A DNA stretch of 20,000 bases from an uncultured virus (IMG/VR IMGVR_UViG_3300031539_000017) (IMGVR_UViG_3300031539_000017); one strand, 5' to 3'. Positions 4,229-16,373 are shown, numbered from the stretch's first letter. Program-made: numbers and translations. The notes: generated by a model from the sequence alone, not told the origin.

Positions 4229-4497
4229 ACCTAGAGGTCATAGAACGCGATGAGGAACGATGTATCCTCTGTCCTGCGCCAGCGATGTATAAGCCGCACC
4301 ACATCGTCCCCAGGTCTAGGGGCAAGGGGCGGAGTCCGAAACTATGGCGCTTAGAGAATATGTGTTGCGTCTGCCCACTACACCATGACAATACCAAGGC
4401 ACTGCGAATCAGGTTGCTTGAGAGAATGGTTGAGCTTGGGCATGATATGACTTGGGCCAGAGAATTTGTCGGCGAGATCGCGGGGGTGACATGCTAA
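4204..4497 (+). CDS. HNH endonuclease (97 aa)
   Basis: SD AGGAGG precedes ATG 4204. Sequence shows RDEERCILC..HHIVPRSRG..LENMCCVCPLHH, a Zn-binding HNH fold. Confidence 0.9.
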   Translation: MPKWIDDLNLEVIERDEERCILCPAPAMYKPHHIVPRSRGKGRSPKLWRLENMCCVCPLHHDNTKALRIRLLERMVELGHDMTWAREFVGEIAGVTC

Positions 4498-5888
4498 TCT
4501 GCGCTGACTCTAGGGCTGCGCTGGCAGAGATAGAAGAGGGGAGCGTACAGTGCTGCATCACCTCTCCGCCATACTGGAGCCTCCGCAGGTACGGCGATGC
4601 AGCGGAGATGGTCTTTGGCGGCGATGCTGGCTGTGAGCATGAGTGGGGGCAGCACATTGTCAATCGGCGGGGCGCAGGCGGCGAGAGGGAATATGGCAGC
4701 TCTGATAGCGGTGTGGGCCGGGGGCCGGCACCCGAGTTGCCCTCCTCCAATATCTGCTCCCTCTGCGGCTGCTGGCGCGGTCAGTTCGGATTAGAGCCCA
4801 CCCCCGAGATGTACGTGGAGCACATGCTGGACTTTTTGCGGGCAATATGGCGGGTGCTGAGGGATGATGGGACGCTGTGGCTGAATCTCGGGGACTCTTA
4901 TGCGAGTCAGGGGGGGGCTAAGACAGAAGCCTCATACGCCTCAGCAGGCACGGGCAATAGTGCCAATCGGACGCTGCGGGTTGATGCCCGGAGACCACCC
5001 GGAGGCCTCAAGCCCAAGGACCTCGTGATGATCCCCTTCCGCGTGGCGTTGGCTGCGCAGGCAGACGGGTGGTGGGTGCGGTCGGTGATCATCTGGTCCA
5101 AGCCTAACCCCATGCCAGAGTCAGTGCGGGACAGGCCGACAACGGCGCATGAATACGTGTTCCTCTTGACGAAGAGCAAGACCTACTTCTACGATGCCGA
5201 TGCGATAAGGGAGCCATGTACCATGACGCCCCAGGCCAGGTTGACTCCACGAGACATGAAGAATGGCAAGGATAGCCAGCGGGCCGTTCACCGTAGACCA
5301 CAATACCAGCTCCGAGATGAGCCAGGGGTAGAGGGCAACCCATTAGGCCGCAACAAGCGTACGGTCTGGGAGATAGCCACGGCCCCATATCCCGGCGCCC
5401 ACTACGCAACATTTCCTCCCAAGCTAGTAGAGCCGATGATACTGACCACGCCCACGAAGGTCTGCGCTGAGTGCGGGGCTGGGTGGGAGAGGGTGGTTCA
5501 GAAGCCCGACATGAAGGAGCGACCAAAGCGCAACCAGCAGAAATACGGAGCAGAGCGCATCAATGTTGGCTGGGGTGACTACCCGCAGAGCGCGGGGCAG
5601 GAGTGGCAAAAGTGGCGCAACGAGAACCCTGACGTAACCCTTGGCTTCCGCCCCACCTGCTCCTGTGATGCTGAGACCAAGCCCGCCGTCATCTTAGACC
5701 CCTTCTGTGGTAGGGGCACCGTTCTCAAAGAGGCAAGAGCGCATGGCCGGGACTGGATAGGCATAGACGTCGATCCTCAATCTATCAAGCTGGCGGAGGA
5801 ATGGCTGGGGCTAGGGGAGGTTACCTATGAGATTGACGAAGAGCATTGGATACAGCCGCAATTAGTCAATGAGGAGTCAGCACAATGA
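4491..5888 (+). CDS. Site-specific DNA methyltransferase (N4-C/N6-A, beta class) with Cys-rich insertions
   Basis: Catalytic TSPPYW is N-terminal, followed by WLNLGDSY, IIWSKPNPMPES, HEYVFLL and HYATFP. SAM-binding DPFCGRGT is C-terminal. Start 4491 follows GGGGGTG. Confidence 0.93.
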   Translation: MLICADSRAALAEIEEGSVQCCITSPPYWSLRRYGDAAEMVFGGDAGCEHEWGQHIVNRRGAGGEREYGSSDSGVGRGPAPELPSSNICSLCGCWRGQFGLEPTPEMYVEHMLDFLRAIWRVLRDDGTLWLNLGDSYASQGGAKTEASYASAGTGNSANRTLRVDARRPPGGLKPKDLVMIPFRVALAAQADGWWVRSVIIWSKPNPMPESVRDRPTTAHEYVFLLTKSKTYFYDADAIREPCTMTPQARLTPRDMKNGKDSQRAVHRRPQYQLRDEPGVEGNPLGRNKRTVWEIATAPYPGAHYATFPPKLVEPMILTTPTKVCAECGAGWERVVQKPDMKERPKRNQQKYGAERINVGWGDYPQSAGQEWQKWRNENPDVTLGFRPTCSCDAETKPAVILDPFCGRGTVLKEARAHGRDWIGIDVDPQSIKLAEEWLGLGEVTYEIDEEHWIQPQLVNEESAQ

Positions 5889-7147
5889 TCTTTTCCAATC
5901 GTCACGAGGTGGAGACACACCTGGCTGAGCAGGCCGATGGGGGTGTCATCGTCGAAGTGGGCTGCGGCGTAGGCGATGGCCTGGTGGCCCTGCTCAACGG
6001 CACGCGGTACGGTAGACTTTTGCCTGTGTATGCTGTCGATCCTTATACTCCCTACGTGGACAAGCTGGGGGGCACCTACGGGCCGGAGAGCAAGCAGGAG
6101 GCCCTGGATAAGGTGGTGGGCACGGGGTTGGGGCGGTTGGTGGCCTTCGTCGAGGAGGACGGCGTACTGGTGGGCGAAAATTGGGACTTGCCTACGGCCC
6201 TGGTGTGGATTGACGTCAGCATGGAGTATGACGGTCTCAAATGCGTCTGGGACGCCTGGGCGGACAAGGTCATGGAGGACGGACATATCGCTATCGCGGG
6301 CCTGGGTTATAGCAGCCTGGGTACAGCGCGGGTGATGCAGGAGGCCGTTGACTCGGGGGACTTCGTGCGGGTGCTGTCGGAGCAGGACAGGGTGGCGGTA
6401 CTACGCAGGGTGCCCCGGAATAGGCGGGCCGTGTTCTACATCGTGGATGGTGAACCCTATGCTGAGGAGGCGGCTTACAGTGCGTCCAGTGTCAAGGAGC
6501 ACATGCCCGGCGTGGAGACCTTTCTGTTTGCGGTGGGTGGCACAGGGGCCAGGGAGAGCATCGACCACGTAGTGCTCTTGCCGCCTCGGGAGAGCGAGCT
6601 GTGGTACCTGGACAGCACGCGGTACTTCAACCAGGCGGTGGCGCACCTCCACGAGTACAACCGTCTTTTGTACCTTGACACGGATACCTGGGTGGCCTGG
6701 GACTGTTTGGATATGTGGTGGCTCCTAGAGCAGTTTGACGTGTGCCTGGGGCACAGTGCGGGCCGGGAGGCCATGCCTTCAGCGATTGGGACGCCCCCGG
6801 CGTTCACTACCCTGTCTATCGGGGTTAGTTTATTCCGCAACAACGCGGAGGTCCGGGCTACGCTGGCGGACTGGCTGGCGTTCTACGAGAAGTACCAGGG
6901 CATCTACGGCGACAATGATGAGAGTCCTTTAAGGGATGTGCTGTGGCTGAATCGGCAGGGGCTGAAAATGTATATCCTGCCCCCTGAGTACAACGTCCGA
7001 GCTGGGTTTGGGTGCTGGCTCTACGGTCGGGCTAGGATAGTTCATGCTCGGCTGCCTCGGTTGAGGCATGTAGCAGAGCAGTTGAATGAGCACACGTCTA
7101 TGCGTTTGTGGCACGATGGTGAGTTCTTGTGGTGGCATCAGAAGTGA
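5885..7147 (+). CDS. Fusion: Methyltransf_24-like domain (N-terminal) + GT-A glycosyltransferase (GT8/GT77-like, C-terminal)
   Basis: N-terminal motifs: IVEVGCGVG, VYAVDPY, LVWID. C-terminal motifs: LYLDTDTW (DxD), IGVSLFR, NDESPLR, LPPEYNVR, IVH. Confidence 0.82.
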   Translation: MIFSNRHEVETHLAEQADGGVIVEVGCGVGDGLVALLNGTRYGRLLPVYAVDPYTPYVDKLGGTYGPESKQEALDKVVGTGLGRLVAFVEEDGVLVGENWDLPTALVWIDVSMEYDGLKCVWDAWADKVMEDGHIAIAGLGYSSLGTARVMQEAVDSGDFVRVLSEQDRVAVLRRVPRNRRAVFYIVDGEPYAEEAAYSASSVKEHMPGVETFLFAVGGTGARESIDHVVLLPPRESELWYLDSTRYFNQAVAHLHEYNRLLYLDTDTWVAWDCLDMWWLLEQFDVCLGHSAGREAMPSAIGTPPAFTTLSIGVSLFRNNAEVRATLADWLAFYEKYQGIYGDNDESPLRDVLWLNRQGLKMYILPPEYNVRAGFGCWLYGRARIVHARLPRLRHVAEQLNEHTSMRLWHDGEFLWWHQK

Positions 7148-7894: not shown

Positions 7895-8554
7895 ATGGTC
7901 ACTAAGGCCATCATGCTCATCCACGTCTTCCGGACCGGTGGTTACATGGTGCAGGGGGTCCTACGGAAGGTCCCTGGCCTGGTGATGGTCTCGGATAGGC
8001 CCACGGAGCACCTGACCTATGATCAGATGGCTGTGGTGTGCGCGAGAGAACGCATGGGGAACCCGCCCGCTATGGTTTTTATCCGCAACCCTTTTGACTG
8101 GTATGTCTCTATGTGGTGCTGGGTCAACATGGCGCCGAACATGCCTCCAGTCTCGGAGTTCCGCGAATACCTGGAGGTCATCCGGGTGCGGCGCTATGGC
8201 ACCACGGGGACGGGCCGCAACTATAGCAGGCTCTCCGAGCACTGGGCTGACATGGGGGCAGGCAAGGCGCAGTGGGAGGGGCGCTTTGAGACTCTACGGG
8301 AGGACTTCATGGACATCATGCTCAAGGTCATGCCCAGCCTGGTGAACGAGAAGATGTTAGGGGACCTCATGGCCAAGGAACCCATCTATCACCCCAGCAG
8401 GCATCCTCAGACAGGTAGGCATCCTGGGGACTATCGGCAATACTACACCCCGGAGACAAGGGCATTGGTCGAGGAGTGGGACAGTGAGCTTCTAGAGCGG
8501 TTCGGTTACACTTTTGAGGAGAAGGTAGATGATATACCCAATCCCGGTGCCTGA
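7895..8554 (+). CDS. Sulfotransferase (Sulfotransfer_2-like)
   Basis: IHVFRTGG (5'-PSB-like), FIRNPFDWYVSMW (3'-PB), GRFETLREDF and YRQYY..LERFGYTF. SD AGGAGG is present. Confidence 0.82.
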   Translation: MVTKAIMLIHVFRTGGYMVQGVLRKVPGLVMVSDRPTEHLTYDQMAVVCARERMGNPPAMVFIRNPFDWYVSMWCWVNMAPNMPPVSEFREYLEVIRVRRYGTTGTGRNYSRLSEHWADMGAGKAQWEGRFETLREDFMDIMLKVMPSLVNEKMLGDLMAKEPIYHPSRHPQTGRHPGDYRQYYTPETRALVEEWDSELLERFGYTFEEKVDDIPNPGA

Positions 8555-9422
8555 TGAGTTCCGCCCGGCCAGCCAGGGTTACACTATGCCGCCGCACTGC
8601 CCGCCGGAGGGGTACGGCGTGGAGCAGGACTTTGACGCTTGGTTACGGACGCAAGGGGAGCTTTTGACTGATTCCGCGGAGGCCGACTGGCTGTACCTCC
8701 CGGTGTTCTGGAACCGGCTCTTTATTGCCACCTGGAAGTGGGCGCAGGATGAGGCCGCCATAGCCCGCTGCGCCGATTGGCTGGCGGCTCTCAGGGATAG
8801 TTTGGGCGGCTTTGAGAGGGTGTTCACCGTCTGTGAATGGGACCTGACCACGGAGCGGCAGGAGCTGGGCACGGACGGGCTGACTGTGTTCACGGCGGGG
8901 CGTCGGGATCGCGCAGGCCTTGATATACCGTTGCTCTGTGCCCCACATGGCGTCCCGCCGGTTTCATACGGCAAGCAATACCTGGCGTCATTTGTGGGCA
9001 ACATTGGGACGTCAGGCTGGCGTCAGGGTATGTTGGAGGCCCTGGAGGGCTACGGCGGGGTCCTCATCGAGCACGCACAGAAGGGGCCAGCCTATTTCTG
9101 TGATGTGATGACCAAGAGCTACGTGGCCCTGGCCCCCAGGGGTCACCGGGGGCAGAGCTTCCGGTTCTACGAGGCCATGGACATGGGTGTGGCCCCGGTC
9201 CTGATCGGTGATATGGATACCCGGCCCTTTAAGAATTGGGTCAATTGGGACTCATGCTCTTACTACGTTCCTGACGCCTCGGAACTTCCCGGCTTTATTG
9301 ACAACCTGGACCTGGAGGACGCGTTACGCAAGGGCGCGGAGGCGGCACGGGTATACCATGAGTGTCTGCGGTTCGGGCGGTGGTGCATGTTTGTGGTGCC
9401 TGAGCTGCTGAGCGTGCCGTAA
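8529..9422 (+). CDS. Exostosin-like GT47 glycosyltransferase
   Basis: ADWLYLPVFW, YLASFVG and SYVALAPRGHRGQSFRFYEAMDMGVAPVLIGD match the GT47 signature. Confidence 0.85.
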   Translation: MIYPIPVPDEFRPASQGYTMPPHCPPEGYGVEQDFDAWLRTQGELLTDSAEADWLYLPVFWNRLFIATWKWAQDEAAIARCADWLAALRDSLGGFERVFTVCEWDLTTERQELGTDGLTVFTAGRRDRAGLDIPLLCAPHGVPPVSYGKQYLASFVGNIGTSGWRQGMLEALEGYGGVLIEHAQKGPAYFCDVMTKSYVALAPRGHRGQSFRFYEAMDMGVAPVLIGDMDTRPFKNWVNWDSCSYYVPDASELPGFIDNLDLEDALRKGAEAARVYHECLRFGRWCMFVVPELLSVP

Positions 9423-9494: not shown

Positions 9495-9696
9495 TCCTAT
9501 AAGGATTTCGGCCCGGTTTTCCCTCTTGGTTGGTATGTAAATGGCGCTTTTCCTGTTTATCCGCGACCCTGCCCCCAAACGTCACCAGAGACACCCAGGT
9601 CACCCAGGGCGGTGTTGGGGTGTGAATAGGTGGCTTGATATCCCCAAATGCTTAGAGCGGCTTGTGGTGAATCATGTTAGAATACTAAACTGGTAC

Positions 9697-9725
9697 TTGA
9701 CAAAATATAAACGATGTGTTATAAT
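9697..9725 (+). promoter_or_regulatory. Consensus sigma70 promoter with extended -10
   Basis: TTGACA (9697-9702), 17 bp spacer, TG-T-TATAAT (TATAAT 9720-9725), in an AT-rich context upstream of the gene at 9783. Confidence 0.92.
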
Positions 9726-9782
9726 ATAGGTAAGATGAGGAACCAGAGAGCAGAGTAACAGGATACCACAGAGGAGGAGACG

Positions 9783-10016
9783 ATGGCAGAGAGAACGGAT
9801 TACCCAAGGAACCTAGCTGAGATTGCAATACAGGGCGCTATTGCCCAGCTTGGTCAGGCAGATAGCCTCTTGCAGAGGTATCAGGCTGAGTACGACCTTC
9901 TTCACCACGAATTGGGTGATGATGGCGGCACGGAAGCCGCGCCAGCGCGCCATGCGGTGGAACAGGCCCTCAATCGTCTGGAATATGCCTTGCAGGAGAC
10001 TAAGCAACTCTCATAG
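9783..10016 (+). CDS. Hypothetical helical protein (77 aa), first gene after the strong promoter
   Basis: Strong SD GAGGAGGAG. Confidence 0.8.
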   Translation: MAERTDYPRNLAEIAIQGAIAQLGQADSLLQRYQAEYDLLHHELGDDGGTEAAPARHAVEQALNRLEYALQETKQLS

Positions 10017-10086
10017 CCGAAACTGGGGTGGAGGCCCCGGTCACCCGCGATGCCGCCGTGCGGGTCCGATGAGGCGATGGGCGGCG
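10010..10086 (+). ncRNA. Type II hammerhead ribozyme (variant core CCGAUGA) with loop-I pseudoknot
   Basis: Order is GCC-GAAA(10019-22), stem III CUGGGG/CCCCGG, UC (cut predicted after C10042), stem I ACCCGC/GCGGGU, CCGAUGA(10066-72), GGC. Loop I GCCGCC (10052-57) is complementary to GGCGGC (10080-85). Confidence 0.82.
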
Positions 10087-10100
10087 AGAGGAGGCAACAC

Positions 10101-10763
10101 ATGAAAATCCTGGCAACTGATGAGCAGAGTCTTGCACGCTGGCAGCGCCTACGCCCTACACCCAAGCAGATGCTCCGGATGGGCACCAATAAGAAGACAT
10201 TTCACTGCGTGCGCTTTGGGCAGCTGGAGGCCTGGGGCAACGGGTTCTTCCTGCTGGTGGGGAACTCGCCGGACGTGCCTATGGAGGATATGACCCAGCG
10301 CATGCAGCGGTTCTCGGACTGGTCTGACATGAAGGACCGGCTGCTGACGCCGGGGGCTTGCCCTGTGGAGCCGCTGCTGTACCTGGAGGCTGACCGCTAC
10401 AGCGTGCAGGAGCGCCGCTTGCTGGTGATGGAGATGCGGTCGCCCACGGACAGCGATGTGATCATGGAGCACCTTACCGTCAATGCAACCATGGCGCTCT
10501 TCATAGAACGTGAGTGCAGGGCGCGGTTCCCCGAGGACTGGATATTGGGCTGGCGGGGCAACCTGTCGGCGGAGGCCAGGATTCACGGGTGCGCCAAGGT
10601 ACATCCCAAGCCATTGACGTATTGCGTAAGGGGTCCGGGAGCTGGCTATACCGCTGCTGGCGTGCTGATGCCCAGGACGTGGGGGAGTCAGTTGGTGAGC
10701 AAGGATGGTAGTGTGGCGCTCCAGTATGATGTGACCCGCAGGGTTTGTTATCGAGACGCTTGA
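10101..10763 (+). CDS. Hypothetical protein (220 aa)
   Basis: SD GAGGAGG precedes ATG 10101, in frame with ORF 10050..10763. Confidence 0.75.
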   Translation: MKILATDEQSLARWQRLRPTPKQMLRMGTNKKTFHCVRFGQLEAWGNGFFLLVGNSPDVPMEDMTQRMQRFSDWSDMKDRLLTPGACPVEPLLYLEADRYSVQERRLLVMEMRSPTDSDVIMEHLTVNATMALFIERECRARFPEDWILGWRGNLSAEARIHGCAKVHPKPLTYCVRGPGAGYTAAGVLMPRTWGSQLVSKDGSVALQYDVTRRVCYRDA

Positions 10764-13734: not shown

Positions 13735-14934
13735 GTGGAGGAGTATTCTGTCTGGAATGAACAAACGATGGCTCTTCAGGTGGCCATGCGGGCTAATGTG
13801 CCGGCGTTGTTATTGGGTGTGCCGGGGATTGCCAAGACGGCGTTTATCAAGGCATTGACAAAAGCCTGGGGATGGGACGTATTTGTGTTTCTTGGCAGCA
13901 TCCGGCAACCTTCTGACATCATTGGGTACCTGGCCCCGGACATGGAGCGCGGCGTGACGAGGGAGTTGCCCCTGGAATGGGCAGTACATATCAGTGAACG
14001 CGCCAAGCGGGGTGATGTGACTGTGGTGTTCCTCGAGGAGCTGACCACGGTGTTCCCGGCTATGCAGGCGGCGCAGCTGCGGTTCGTGCATGAGCGCAAG
14101 GTGGGTGAGTGTGACCTGGGGGAGAGCACCCGCATCGTGGCTGCGGCTAACCCGCCCGAGATGGCACCCGGTGGGTTTCAGCTGGCACCGCCGATGGCCA
14201 ACCGGCTTTTACACCTGGGGTGGAGGGAGGACGTGATGCACTGGGCCGATAACATGCTGCTGGACTTCCCGGCCCCGGTACTGCCTACGTTCAATAAGGA
14301 CAAGGCAGCGGAGGCCCGTGAGCGTTGGAAGGCCCTCATTCACGCTTACATTCGAGGTTATCGCCAGGAGCACCTTGTGGTCATGCCTGCGGACAGCGAG
14401 GGGCGTGTGGATGAGGAACGGGCTTCTGGTCCGTGGGCCAGTGAGCGCACCTGGTATGAGTACCTGCTGCCCTGTCTATCTTGGTTAGACGCCGTACAGG
14501 GCATCTCCAGGCAGCTCTACGAGAGCGTGAGGGAGCGGCTGGCCACGGGGTCCATCGGCGCGGTGGGCGCGGAGTTCCTTCTGTGGGTGGACAACCTGGA
14601 CCTCACTTCGGCACAGGATATGCTCAAACAGGGGTCCAAGTATGAGGTCCCGGACCGCCAGGACAGGGCCTATGCGGAGCTGGCGAACCTGTCGATTCAC
14701 GTGGCGGGGTTTGGTGACAATCTCACAGAGAAGATGTGGCTGGCAGCGTGGACAGTCTTTGCGGCTGCGGCAAAGCAGGGTAAGGTGGCTACGGCTGCGG
14801 CTGCGGCGAAGTTACTGGCATCTCAGGCCAGGGCTGACCTGCCCCTGGTTTATGAGCAGATGGCGCCGTTCAGGCCCCTACTGGAGGCTGCACGGATGAT
14901 ACCGCGGATTGATGATATGCTGACGGAGTTGTGA
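13735..14934 (+). CDS. MoxR-like AAA+ ATPase (AAA_5)
   Basis: Walker A GVPGIAKT, Walker B VVFLEE, sensor-1 AAANP and Arg finger PPMANR. SD AGGAGG precedes the GTG. Confidence 0.9.
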   Translation: MEEYSVWNEQTMALQVAMRANVPALLLGVPGIAKTAFIKALTKAWGWDVFVFLGSIRQPSDIIGYLAPDMERGVTRELPLEWAVHISERAKRGDVTVVFLEELTTVFPAMQAAQLRFVHERKVGECDLGESTRIVAAANPPEMAPGGFQLAPPMANRLLHLGWREDVMHWADNMLLDFPAPVLPTFNKDKAAEARERWKALIHAYIRGYRQEHLVVMPADSEGRVDEERASGPWASERTWYEYLLPCLSWLDAVQGISRQLYESVRERLATGSIGAVGAEFLLWVDNLDLTSAQDMLKQGSKYEVPDRQDRAYAELANLSIHVAGFGDNLTEKMWLAAWTVFAAAAKQGKVATAAAAAKLLASQARADLPLVYEQMAPFRPLLEAARMIPRIDDMLTEL

Positions 14935-14945
14935 GGAGCCTACTG

Positions 14946-16373
14946 ATGACCGATCATGACGCTGCCCTGGCTATGGACGCTGCACGTATCCGGCTGAACC
15001 ATCTGCGGGGATACCTACGGGCTGTGCTTTGGACTATGCGCATAGTGCCTGCGCCGGGCATTCAGACCATGGCCATGTCCAAGGACGCGGTGGTCTACTA
15101 TGACCCCGAGGAGGTGTCTAGCTGGCCCTTGGAGGTCTGTGTGACCATGCTGTATCACGAGATAGGTCACTGGATGCGGCGGCACTATGAGCGCATGGTG
15201 TCCTTCCCGGATGTGAAACACGCACAGGTGGCGGCGGAGCTGGAGCTGCAGTGCGACATAGTGGAGGAGGTCCTGAGGGATAAGAACCTGGAGATGCCTG
15301 AGAGGGGCTACATAGTGCCGGGCAAGCCGCCTTTTAGAGACCTGCCCAGGGGCCTCTTGGCTGAGGAATACTATCGACTTCTGGAGCAGGAATGCCAGAA
15401 GTCCAGCAGTCAAGGCCAGCAACAAGGCCAGGGTCAGCAACAACAGGGTCAACAGGGTCAGGACCAGCAAGGTCAGGGCCAGGGCCAGAATCAGCAACAG
15501 CAGCAACAACGGGGTCAAGGCCCGCAACAGAATCAGCAGCAAGGGCAACAGGGTCAAGGTCAACAACAGCAGCAACAGGGTCAAGGCTCACAACAGGGGC
15601 AGATGCCGCCCCAGGGTTCTGTATCTGATGGGCGATGGAAGGACTGGGAAGAGTGCGATCACCCAGAGGGCATCACGGAAGCTCAGGGGCGGCTCATAGC
15701 CCGCCGGTTGGCAGAGGACATCGCTGAGGCCGTGCGTAAGGAGGAGTCTAGCCGGGGCATCGGGTCAGTACCTGCATGGATGAAGCGCTGGGCTCAGTTG
15801 CAACTCTCCCCGCAGGTGCCATGGCACAAGGTTCTGGACCGGTGGATACGTCAGTCTATCGGGCACGTGCTGGGGTTCTCGGATTACTCATTCAGGACAC
15901 CGAACCGCAGGGCTGCCCTGAGCGGCCTCATTTTACCGGGATTGGTCAAGCCGGTGCCCCGGATCGCCGTTGTGTTGGACACCTCGGGGTCTATGTCGGG
16001 CAGGCAGATCGGCATGGCCCTGACAGAGATCGGCGGCGTGCTCAAGGCGATGGGGGTCCTGGAGGGTGTGTGGGTGCTGGCTACGGACGCGGAGGCCCAC
16101 ACGTGTCAGCGTGTGTTCAATCCCCGCCAGGTGGACGTGGTGGGCGGCGGGGGCACCATCCTGGAGTCCGGCATTGCCAGGGCCATGAAACTGCGGCCCC
16201 GGCCCGAGATCGTGATCGTCATCTCGGACTGCTACAACTACTGGGACGATGTCAAGCCCGCCAGGGTGAGCATCGTGATCGTGCGCGTGGGGGGTGGAAA
16301 AGCCCCTGCGTGGGCGGACAAGGTGATTGACGTGGAGGATGTGGTAGAGGACCGGGTAGTATGGACAAGATGA
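14946..16373 (+). CDS. DUF2201-type protein: HExxH metallopeptidase-like domain + Q/G-rich linker + vWA domain (alternative start GTG 14931)
   Basis: LYHEIGHWMRRH, MIDAS VVLDTSGSMS, GGGGT and ISD. It lies directly after the MoxR ATPase, the standard pairing. Confidence 0.9.
   Translation: MTDHDAALAMDAARIRLNHLRGYLRAVLWTMRIVPAPGIQTMAMSKDAVVYYDPEEVSSWPLEVCVTMLYHEIGHWMRRHYERMVSFPDVKHAQVAAELELQCDIVEEVLRDKNLEMPERGYIVPGKPPFRDLPRGLLAEEYYRLLEQECQKSSSQGQQQGQGQQQQGQQGQDQQGQGQGQNQQQQQQRGQGPQQNQQQGQQGQGQQQQQQGQGSQQGQMPPQGSVSDGRWKDWEECDHPEGITEAQGRLIARRLAEDIAEAVRKEESSRGIGSVPAWMKRWAQLQLSPQVPWHKVLDRWIRQSIGHVLGFSDYSFRTPNRRAALSGLILPGLVKPVPRIAVVLDTSGSMSGRQIGMALTEIGGVLKAMGVLEGVWVLATDAEAHTCQRVFNPRQVDVVGGGGTILESGIARAMKLRPRPEIVIVISDCYNYWDDVKPARVSIVIVRVGGGKAPAWADKVIDVEDVVEDRVVWTR
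15411..15603 (+). repeat. Low-complexity CAA/CAG/GGT repeat encoding a poly-Gln/Gly linker
   Basis: QGQQQGQGQQQQGQQGQDQQGQGQGQNQQQQQQRGQGPQQNQQQGQQGQGQQQQQQGQGSQQGQ. Confidence 0.9.

Follow-up and report, generated by a model that had tools for sequence, protein, structure and literature searches.

Hammerhead ribozymes are common in phage and prophage operons, and the nearly invariant U4 of their core is part of the catalytic U-turn. Type II hammerheads, in which loop I forms a pseudoknot with the 3′ tail, are common in bacteria and occur near prophage genes, and their fast cleavage requires the pseudoknot (PMC3088659). The occurrence of such pseudoknotted elements near phage genes, which a first-pass annotation of the DNA studied here had taken as established, is indeed documented in the same paper. 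Three type II hammerheads near phage-like genes have been reported to cleave in vivo in Desulfovibrio vulgaris (PMC8782182).

Rare natural variants of the core have been recorded, U4C among them (PMC3088659). This substitution causes a considerable loss of activity in vitro, yet what activity remains suffices for a viroid in vivo (Ambros and Flores 1998, cited in PMC3088659). Another natural variant, U13a, in which a U is inserted in the GAAA segment, is expected to change the structure only minimally (PMC3088659). In a pairwise mutational scan, the CUGA U-turn mutated at one or two positions had low co-transcriptional activity, except when the C:G pair was swapped (PMC9901934), and a natural A6C variant from phage Bcep176 cleaves well with Mn2+ but hardly at all with Mg2+ (PMC7151607). 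We found no report of U4C in a phage or in a type II hammerhead in the open-access literature, no description of a variant combining C4 with U13a in the accessible parts of PMC3088659, and no mention of U13a or U4C in the text of its supplement.

Architecture of the element

The window analyzed here is a stretch of 20,000 nucleotides from an uncultured virus (IMG/VR IMGVR_UViG_3300031539_000017), corresponding to positions 116506-136505 of a 143,142-bp record (G000:C1). Coordinates are those of the window, + strand, unless the record or another contig is named. The first-pass annotation had proposed a type II hammerhead with a U4C core, and a direct read of window 9800-10300 recovered every hammerhead element that it listed, each in its place.

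The element starts inside the stop codon of the upstream gene P0002 (TAG, 10014-10016), the G of which is the first base of stem II. The 3′ strand of this stem (GCC, 10016-10018, positions 11.3-11.1) pairs with its 5′ strand (GGC, 10073-10075, positions 10.1-10.3) and is invariant in 5/5 distinct family sequences. It is followed by the core residues G12, A13, and A14 (10019-10021), aligned to the GAAA of the Rfam model RF02276 (Hammerhead_II), and by the stem III hairpin (10022-10041), formed by ACUGGGG (10022-10028) and CCCCGGU (10035-10041), which includes the A15.1-U16.1 pair and closes on the loop UGGAGG. The GUC triplet (10040-10042) also aligns to that of RF02276 and ends with C17 (10042), and the predicted cleavage site lies between 10042 and 10043, 3′ of C17 and 5′ of A1.1. 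Then comes the stem I hairpin (10043-10065), in which ACCCGC (10043-10048) pairs with GCGGGU (10060-10065) around an 11-nt loop (GAUGCCGCCGU, 10049-10059). The core strand C3 C4 G5 A6 U7 G8 A9 (10066-10072), read from the sequence and aligned to RF02276, is CCGAUGA, with C10067 in place of the near-invariant U4, as the earlier reading had it.

Loop I and the 3′ tail can form the predicted pseudoknot through six Watson-Crick pairs between GCCGCC (10052-10057) and GGCGGC (10080-10085), and a U10051-G10086 wobble is a possible seventh pair, extending the tail to 10080-10086 and its partner to 10051-10057. The computed energy of this duplex is −13.2 kcal/mol. The element ends directly before the Shine-Dalgarno sequence of the gene at 10101: the region GAGAGGAGG (10086-10094) adjoins the pseudoknot tail, and the same arrangement was found in all orthologues. 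Only one detail of the proposed anatomy fared less well. The CAU/AUG extension of stem II is present in the window but, according to the family alignment, is unable to pair in the orthologues. Because it is not conserved, we rejected it as part of stem II and treat this stem as 3 bp long.

The segments thus described follow the three-way junction order II(3′)-GAAA-III-H17-I-CUGANGA-II(5′), with stem II open and stems I and III closed by loops, and the tertiary contact of type II hammerheads, a pseudoknot of at least four pairs that joins loop I to the tail following stem II, is present. The sole mismatch to the full consensus core is position 4 (C10067). When only nested pairs were allowed, the minimum-energy fold (−39.2 kcal/mol) kept stems I and III, but the tail paired with the GCCG of stem II instead of leaving the junction to form; with the pseudoknot residues blocked, the minimum-energy fold was the hammerhead three-way junction. 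The z-score of the minimum free energy (−0.72) is uninformative either way.

Similarity to the Rfam model

Searching the element against Rfam, as the first-pass annotation had suggested, gave a divided answer: it aligned over the full length of RF02276 (model positions 1-66 of 66), but with a score of 27.5 bits, below the gathering score of 37 bits. The E-value was 6.7e-4 when 201 nt were compared with all 4227 families, and 1.1e-4 when this single family was searched over the whole 143,142-bp record. The Rfam model is unable to score the pseudoknot. Scans at gathering thresholds returned no match in the window and none in the whole record; such a default scan is silent because 27.5 bits lies below the gathering score. 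No tRNAs were found in the whole record.

We also wrote a structural descriptor that accepts a core of CUGANGA or CCGANGA, GAAA or GAUAA, at least four pairs in each of stems III and I, and at least two pairs in stem II. On both strands of the record it matched twice, at the window site and at an orthologous site described below, whereas 100 simulated records (first-order Markov, same dinucleotide transitions) gave no match.

Two related units and a mosaic boundary

Comparing the record with itself revealed two collinear related units, A (1 to ~70 kb) and B (77.5 to 143 kb, which includes the window), which are offset by 73-77 kb and share 70-94% DNA identity. A separate IMG/VR record of 69 kb corresponds to unit A position by position. 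The 143-kb record, labeled a "complete" virus, probably consists of two sister phages of ~70-75 kb joined in assembly. A second copy of the element lies at record positions 53611-53688; on this reading it is an orthologue in the sister phage and not a paralogue, and C4 is then fixed in each of two lineages, which differ by ~30% in the DNA of their flanking genes.

Units A and B lose their similarity just past the promoter and regain it precisely at the element's 5′ edge (53614 versus 126519 in the record). Between promoter and element, unit B carries one gene (P0002) and unit A ~1.2 kb of other small open reading frames (ORFs). A similar break separates unit A (contig L034) from a further relative, L009: their elements are 100% identical and the downstream DNA is 95-97% identical, while the upstream DNA is unrelated. 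A mosaic boundary, with variable genes on its upstream side and a conserved module on its downstream side, is thus marked by the element.

Promoter and neighboring genes

As had been proposed, the element sits between the first two genes of its operon. The operon is driven by a perfect extended −10 promoter, a sigma-70-type TTGACA-17-TATAAT sequence with a TG before the −10 box (9697-9725, + strand; 12/12 consensus matches). Calling the resulting transcript "early" is an assumption. A homologous promoter module occupies the matching place in unit A (L034 267-295), and ~75 nt around the promoter are conserved in both units (window 9672-9746, L034 242-316); other near-consensus promoters also occur in matching pairs across units A and B. 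The 57 nt that separate the −10 box from the first ATG (9727-9783) form a leader that was found with 6 differences in contigs of three runs, with flanks unlike those of the window, and that may be a mobile or recombining segment.

P0002 (9783-10016, 77 aa) has no family match. Its stop codon overlaps the first base of stem II, and in 6/6 checkable loci a frame open for at least 77 codons ends in a stop codon that overlaps or adjoins this stem. The downstream gene P0001 (10101-10763, 220 aa, ATG at 10101) is the conserved partner of the element. Its homologues share 50-66% identity, and besides its own cluster, 5 clusters were found in an index of 5.8 billion proteins. No Pfam, PHROG, or PDB match was obtained for P0001, its AlphaFold model (mean pLDDT of 49.5) was too poor for a structure search, and the ESM Atlas offered no lead above noise.

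Neighboring genes with family matches lie within window positions 4452-7147, 8529-9422, and 13735-16373. They encode an N6/N4 DNA methylase fused to a second methyltransferase domain, a Methyltransf_24 protein, an exostosin GT47-like glycosyltransferase, which is unusual in a phage, and an ATPase followed by an HNH endonuclease-family protein.

Orthologues upstream of P0001 homologues

Using R1, a covariance model that we derived from three of the sequences (window, L013, and L014), we found the element upstream of a P0001 homologue in 6/7 distinct loci having upstream sequence: the window, unit A (L034/L008/L002), L009/L010, L012, L013, and L014, with R1 scores of 62.6 to 107.2 bits. A further locus, L007, starts 15 nt before the gene and was left out. 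The element belongs to a small phage-specific subfamily sitting just upstream of one conserved gene.

The members differ mainly in their cores. L013 and L014, whose P0001 homologues share 50-53% protein identity with that of the window, have the consensus core CUGAGGA with U4, GAAA, and GUC, and a G-C instead of an A-U at stem I pair 1.1-2.1; they score 35.1 and 34.9 bits against RF02276. C4 is common to the window, the unit-A orthologue, and L009/L010, and the latter two (P0001 homologues 64-65% identical in protein) combine the core CCGAUGA with GAUAA in place of GAAA and score 28.2 bits. The unit-A sequence, represented by L008/L034, is identical to two IMG/VR records, L002/L003. At the other end of the series, the L012 element (899-973) reads CAAA for GAAA, a GUU triplet, and CAGAUGC for CUGAUGA, and has a C-A mismatch in stem I, although its loop I and pseudoknot tail are identical to those of the other members and its stem III is kept by compensatory changes. 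It lies ~230 nt upstream of its P0001 homologue (59% protein identity), with a small ORF in between.

The R1 search found no element upstream of the P0001 homologue of L011. In this contig (209-439), the gene directly follows a TTGACA...TATAAT promoter with a leader of ~165 nt. From this single case, the ribozyme may be present only where other genes separate the promoter from the P0001 homologue.

In L009, and likewise in L010, another type II hammerhead, distinct from the first, lies ~220 nt farther upstream (L009 817-886). It combines a canonical CUGAUGA core with GAUAA and scores 37.9 bits, above Rfam gathering. One small gene is thereby bracketed by two hammerheads. Tandem hammerhead arrangements have been described (PMC3088659).

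Other searches added little. Three pattern scans and an alignment-based scan of viral contigs recovered only the two records matching unit A, and GenBank phages gave no match either to the DNA or to P0001. Fourteen loci from a 21-mer scan of species genomes were rejected as chance: 13 of them match R1 at the stem I hairpin only, and the fourteenth, L032, gave a full-length R1 match of 27.1 bits but has neither the GAAA-stem III segment nor a CUGANGA core. When four DNA runs were compared with the window, none of the letter differences listed fell within the element. A low-depth contig of X6 carries a further relative, with a UAG overlapping the GCC, GAAAC, and a different stem III, which joins the window sequence at 10036-10095 with 5 differences.

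The Rfam threshold misses the whole subfamily, canonical-core members included. The unit-A orthologue (L040 17611-17688) was also missed by the Rfam family search of the record and by an E-value scan of 56 kb, although it scored its 28.2 bits when presented in a short stretch, and such filter losses can hide sub-threshold hammerheads with a core insertion.

Covariation and conservation

Stem covariation among homologues, on which the first-pass annotation had made its assignment depend, was found: three pairs show compensatory changes among 5 distinct sequences. Two of them belong to the six modeled pairs of stem III, and the other is stem I pair 1.1-2.1, which is A-U in 3 distinct sequences and G-C in 2. 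The alignment covers 22 pairs, pseudoknot included, and was fitted to model R1, which favors covariation. In this alignment, 109/110 cells pair (99.1%), against 24-44% in controls with slid partners, and between 5 and 14 of 500 column shuffles reached the observed values on four of five measures; for the fifth, further pair types, 99/500 did. The six Watson-Crick pairs of the pseudoknot are invariant in 5/5 distinct sequences, and its seventh pair is U-G in the window and U-A in the other 4, a single-sided change that keeps the pairing. Because the set is small and the alignment model-fitted, we take the covariation as support rather than proof.

The element is 74-100% identical in pairwise comparisons and exceeds the first 400 nt of the downstream gene in every comparable pair. 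Between the two C4 lineages it is 87% identical, versus 66-71% for the downstream coding sequence, and the genes adjoining it are only ~70% identical in DNA. Both lineages retain C3, G5, A6, G8, A9, G12, A13, A14, A15.1-U16.1, and C17 unchanged, with the U insertion as an extra change in unit A. Given that orthologues have canonical cores (L013 and L014) and that the stems show compensatory changes, descent of the element from a standard type II hammerhead can be deduced from these sequences with near certainty.

Does the C4 element cleave?

Our preferred explanation is that the element is a type II hammerhead with an open stem II, stems I and III as hairpins, and the 6-7 bp pseudoknot between loop I and the tail as tertiary contact, in which the near-invariant U4 of the U-turn has become C in this phage and its nearest relatives. 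Judging from its sequence, we lean slightly toward self-cleavage after C10042 at a biologically useful rate; it would probably be slower than in a consensus hammerhead, or occur only in favorable conditions. Where the first-pass annotation had suggested that the substitution may tune the rate, the published results point to a considerable decrease in vitro for U4C and to low activity for U-turn mutants. Such cleavage would split the polycistronic transcript, separating the variable promoter-proximal gene or genes from the conserved downstream module. The last structure of the 5′ product would be the GC-rich, 7-bp stem III hairpin, followed by one nucleotide with a 2′,3′-cyclic phosphate. The 3′ product would carry a 5′-OH and open, without unpaired 5′ nucleotides, on an H-type pseudoknot (stem I with the helix between loop I and tail) that immediately precedes the ribosome-binding site and lies four nucleotides upstream of GGAGG. 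The downstream message would then gain a fixed, protected 5′ end regardless of the upstream sequence, and the element would act as a natural insulator. The capped ends of the predicted products and the mosaic boundary suggest this insulating role, and we infer cleavage, its rate, and its consequences for stability and translation from these features.

Could the resemblance to a hammerhead have arisen by chance in GC-rich intergenic DNA, with no function attached? The score under the Rfam gathering threshold, the unremarkable folding z-score, and the one core position off consensus are what such a reading would expect. However, the descriptor found its two orthologous sites in the real record and none in the simulated ones, the element is kept upstream of the same gene in 6/7 loci, two of them with canonical cores, its stems carry compensatory changes, and it is better conserved than the neighboring coding sequence. 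With the simulated-record count, the recurrence across loci, the covariation, and the scores of the canonical-core relatives taken together, we consider chance resemblance refuted and its remaining probability extremely small. Two other candidate identities were rejected as well: an intrinsic terminator, as there is no U run, and a protein-coding sequence on either strand, since the element lengths of 75, 77, and 78 nt differ by changes that are not multiples of three.

A more serious alternative is that C4 effectively abolished cleavage and that the folded scaffold of stem I, the loop I-tail pseudoknot, and stem III was kept as a non-catalytic leader, which might control access to the adjacent ribosome-binding site, serve as a protein-binding structure, or shield an unprocessed transcript from ribonucleases. 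L012 speaks for it, with its identical loop I and tail and its compensated stem III despite G12C, U4A, A9C, and a stem I mismatch, as does the graded series of cores from canonical to C4, C4 with the U insertion, and wrecked. The loop I and pseudoknot sequences are invariant in 5/5, which is stricter than pairing alone demands, the activity of U-turn mutants in vitro is low, and the tail abuts the Shine-Dalgarno sequence in every member. On the other hand, all other catalytic positions are intact in two C4 lineages although the flanking genes diverged by ~30% in DNA, which would be unexpected had selection on catalysis been relaxed from their common ancestor onward, and L012 is itself an example of such decay. 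The further change seen in unit A corresponds to a published natural variant, U13a, of probably minimal structural effect (PMC3088659), and the same U insertion is present in the hammerhead at L009 817-886, with its canonical core and its score above gathering. U4C also supported viroid function in vivo, as cited in PMC3088659. Loss of catalysis is, on this evidence, possible but rather doubtful. Alternatively, C4 might tie cleavage to a divalent metal other than Mg2+, or to a low pH that would protonate C4, and the host's state would then influence how the operon is processed. The Bcep176 A6C variant, poor with Mg2+ and good with Mn2+, provides a phage precedent (PMC7151607), saltern hammerhead variants have been proposed to be salt-tuned (PMC3088659), and C4 is fixed in two diverged phage lineages; but the argument is one of analogy, and such a conditionally active ribozyme would be a sub-case of our preferred explanation and not a true alternative to it. 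We hold it to be quite improbable.

Returning to the reading in which the C4 element still cleaves, continued catalysis is favored because the other core positions are intact in both C4 lineages, because the only further change is U13a, because the scaffold with the pseudoknot for high-speed activity is intact, and because U4C has an in vivo precedent; it is disfavored because U4C is costly in vitro. Conservation of the scaffold is no proof of catalysis, since L012 keeps it with a core that should be dead. It is conceivable, though we would call it unlikely, that the subfamily is a hammerhead in the course of leaving catalysis, with the pseudoknotted scaffold under strict selection for a role that is either non-catalytic or conditionally catalytic, depending on metal ion or pH. 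If so, the module would be a structured insulating leader, located at a recombination boundary, that defines where translation of a conserved gene starts.

Whichever reading applies, the same element stands before the same gene in four states, consensus, U4C, U4C with U13a, and dead core, and this compact natural series bears both on the catalysis that a phage messenger needs and on the use of the pseudoknotted scaffold itself. As the element lies at a sharp boundary between variable cargo genes and a conserved module, the insulator idea is directly testable.

Comparison with known hammerheads

The closest described class is the type II hammerhead of RF02276 (Perreault et al. 2011, PMC3088659), with which the element shares the permutation, an open stem II of 3 bp, and an intergenic position in a phage polycistron. 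The GAAA, the A15.1-U16.1 pair, the GUC triplet, C3, G5, A6, G8, and A9 are likewise shared, as is a pseudoknot joining loop I to the tail that immediately follows stem II on its 3′ side. The window differs by C instead of U at core position 4 and by its loop I/tail sequences, GCCGCC/GGCGGC, which depart from the model consensus, and even its canonical-core orthologues reach only 34.9-35.1 bits against the gathering score of 37. Because this threshold and the strict core consensus are both missed, we regard the element as a relative of type II hammerheads with a variant core.

The A6C hammerhead of Bcep176 is, like the window element, a phage intergenic ribozyme sequence with a single substitution at a near-invariant core position, A6 there and U4 here; the Mn2+ preference of the former has been demonstrated (PMC7151607), whereas the latter is known from sequence. 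Compared with the U13a variant, the unit-A and L009/L010 orthologues and the hammerhead at L009 817-886 read GAUAA; the window copy has a plain GAAA, while the unit-A and L009/L010 orthologues combine U13a with C4. Finally, the viroid U4C hammerhead cited in PMC3088659 carries the same natural substitution at the same core position. The window element differs from it as a type II, pseudoknot-stabilized element in the mRNA of a double-stranded DNA phage, with C4 present in at least two diverged lineages.
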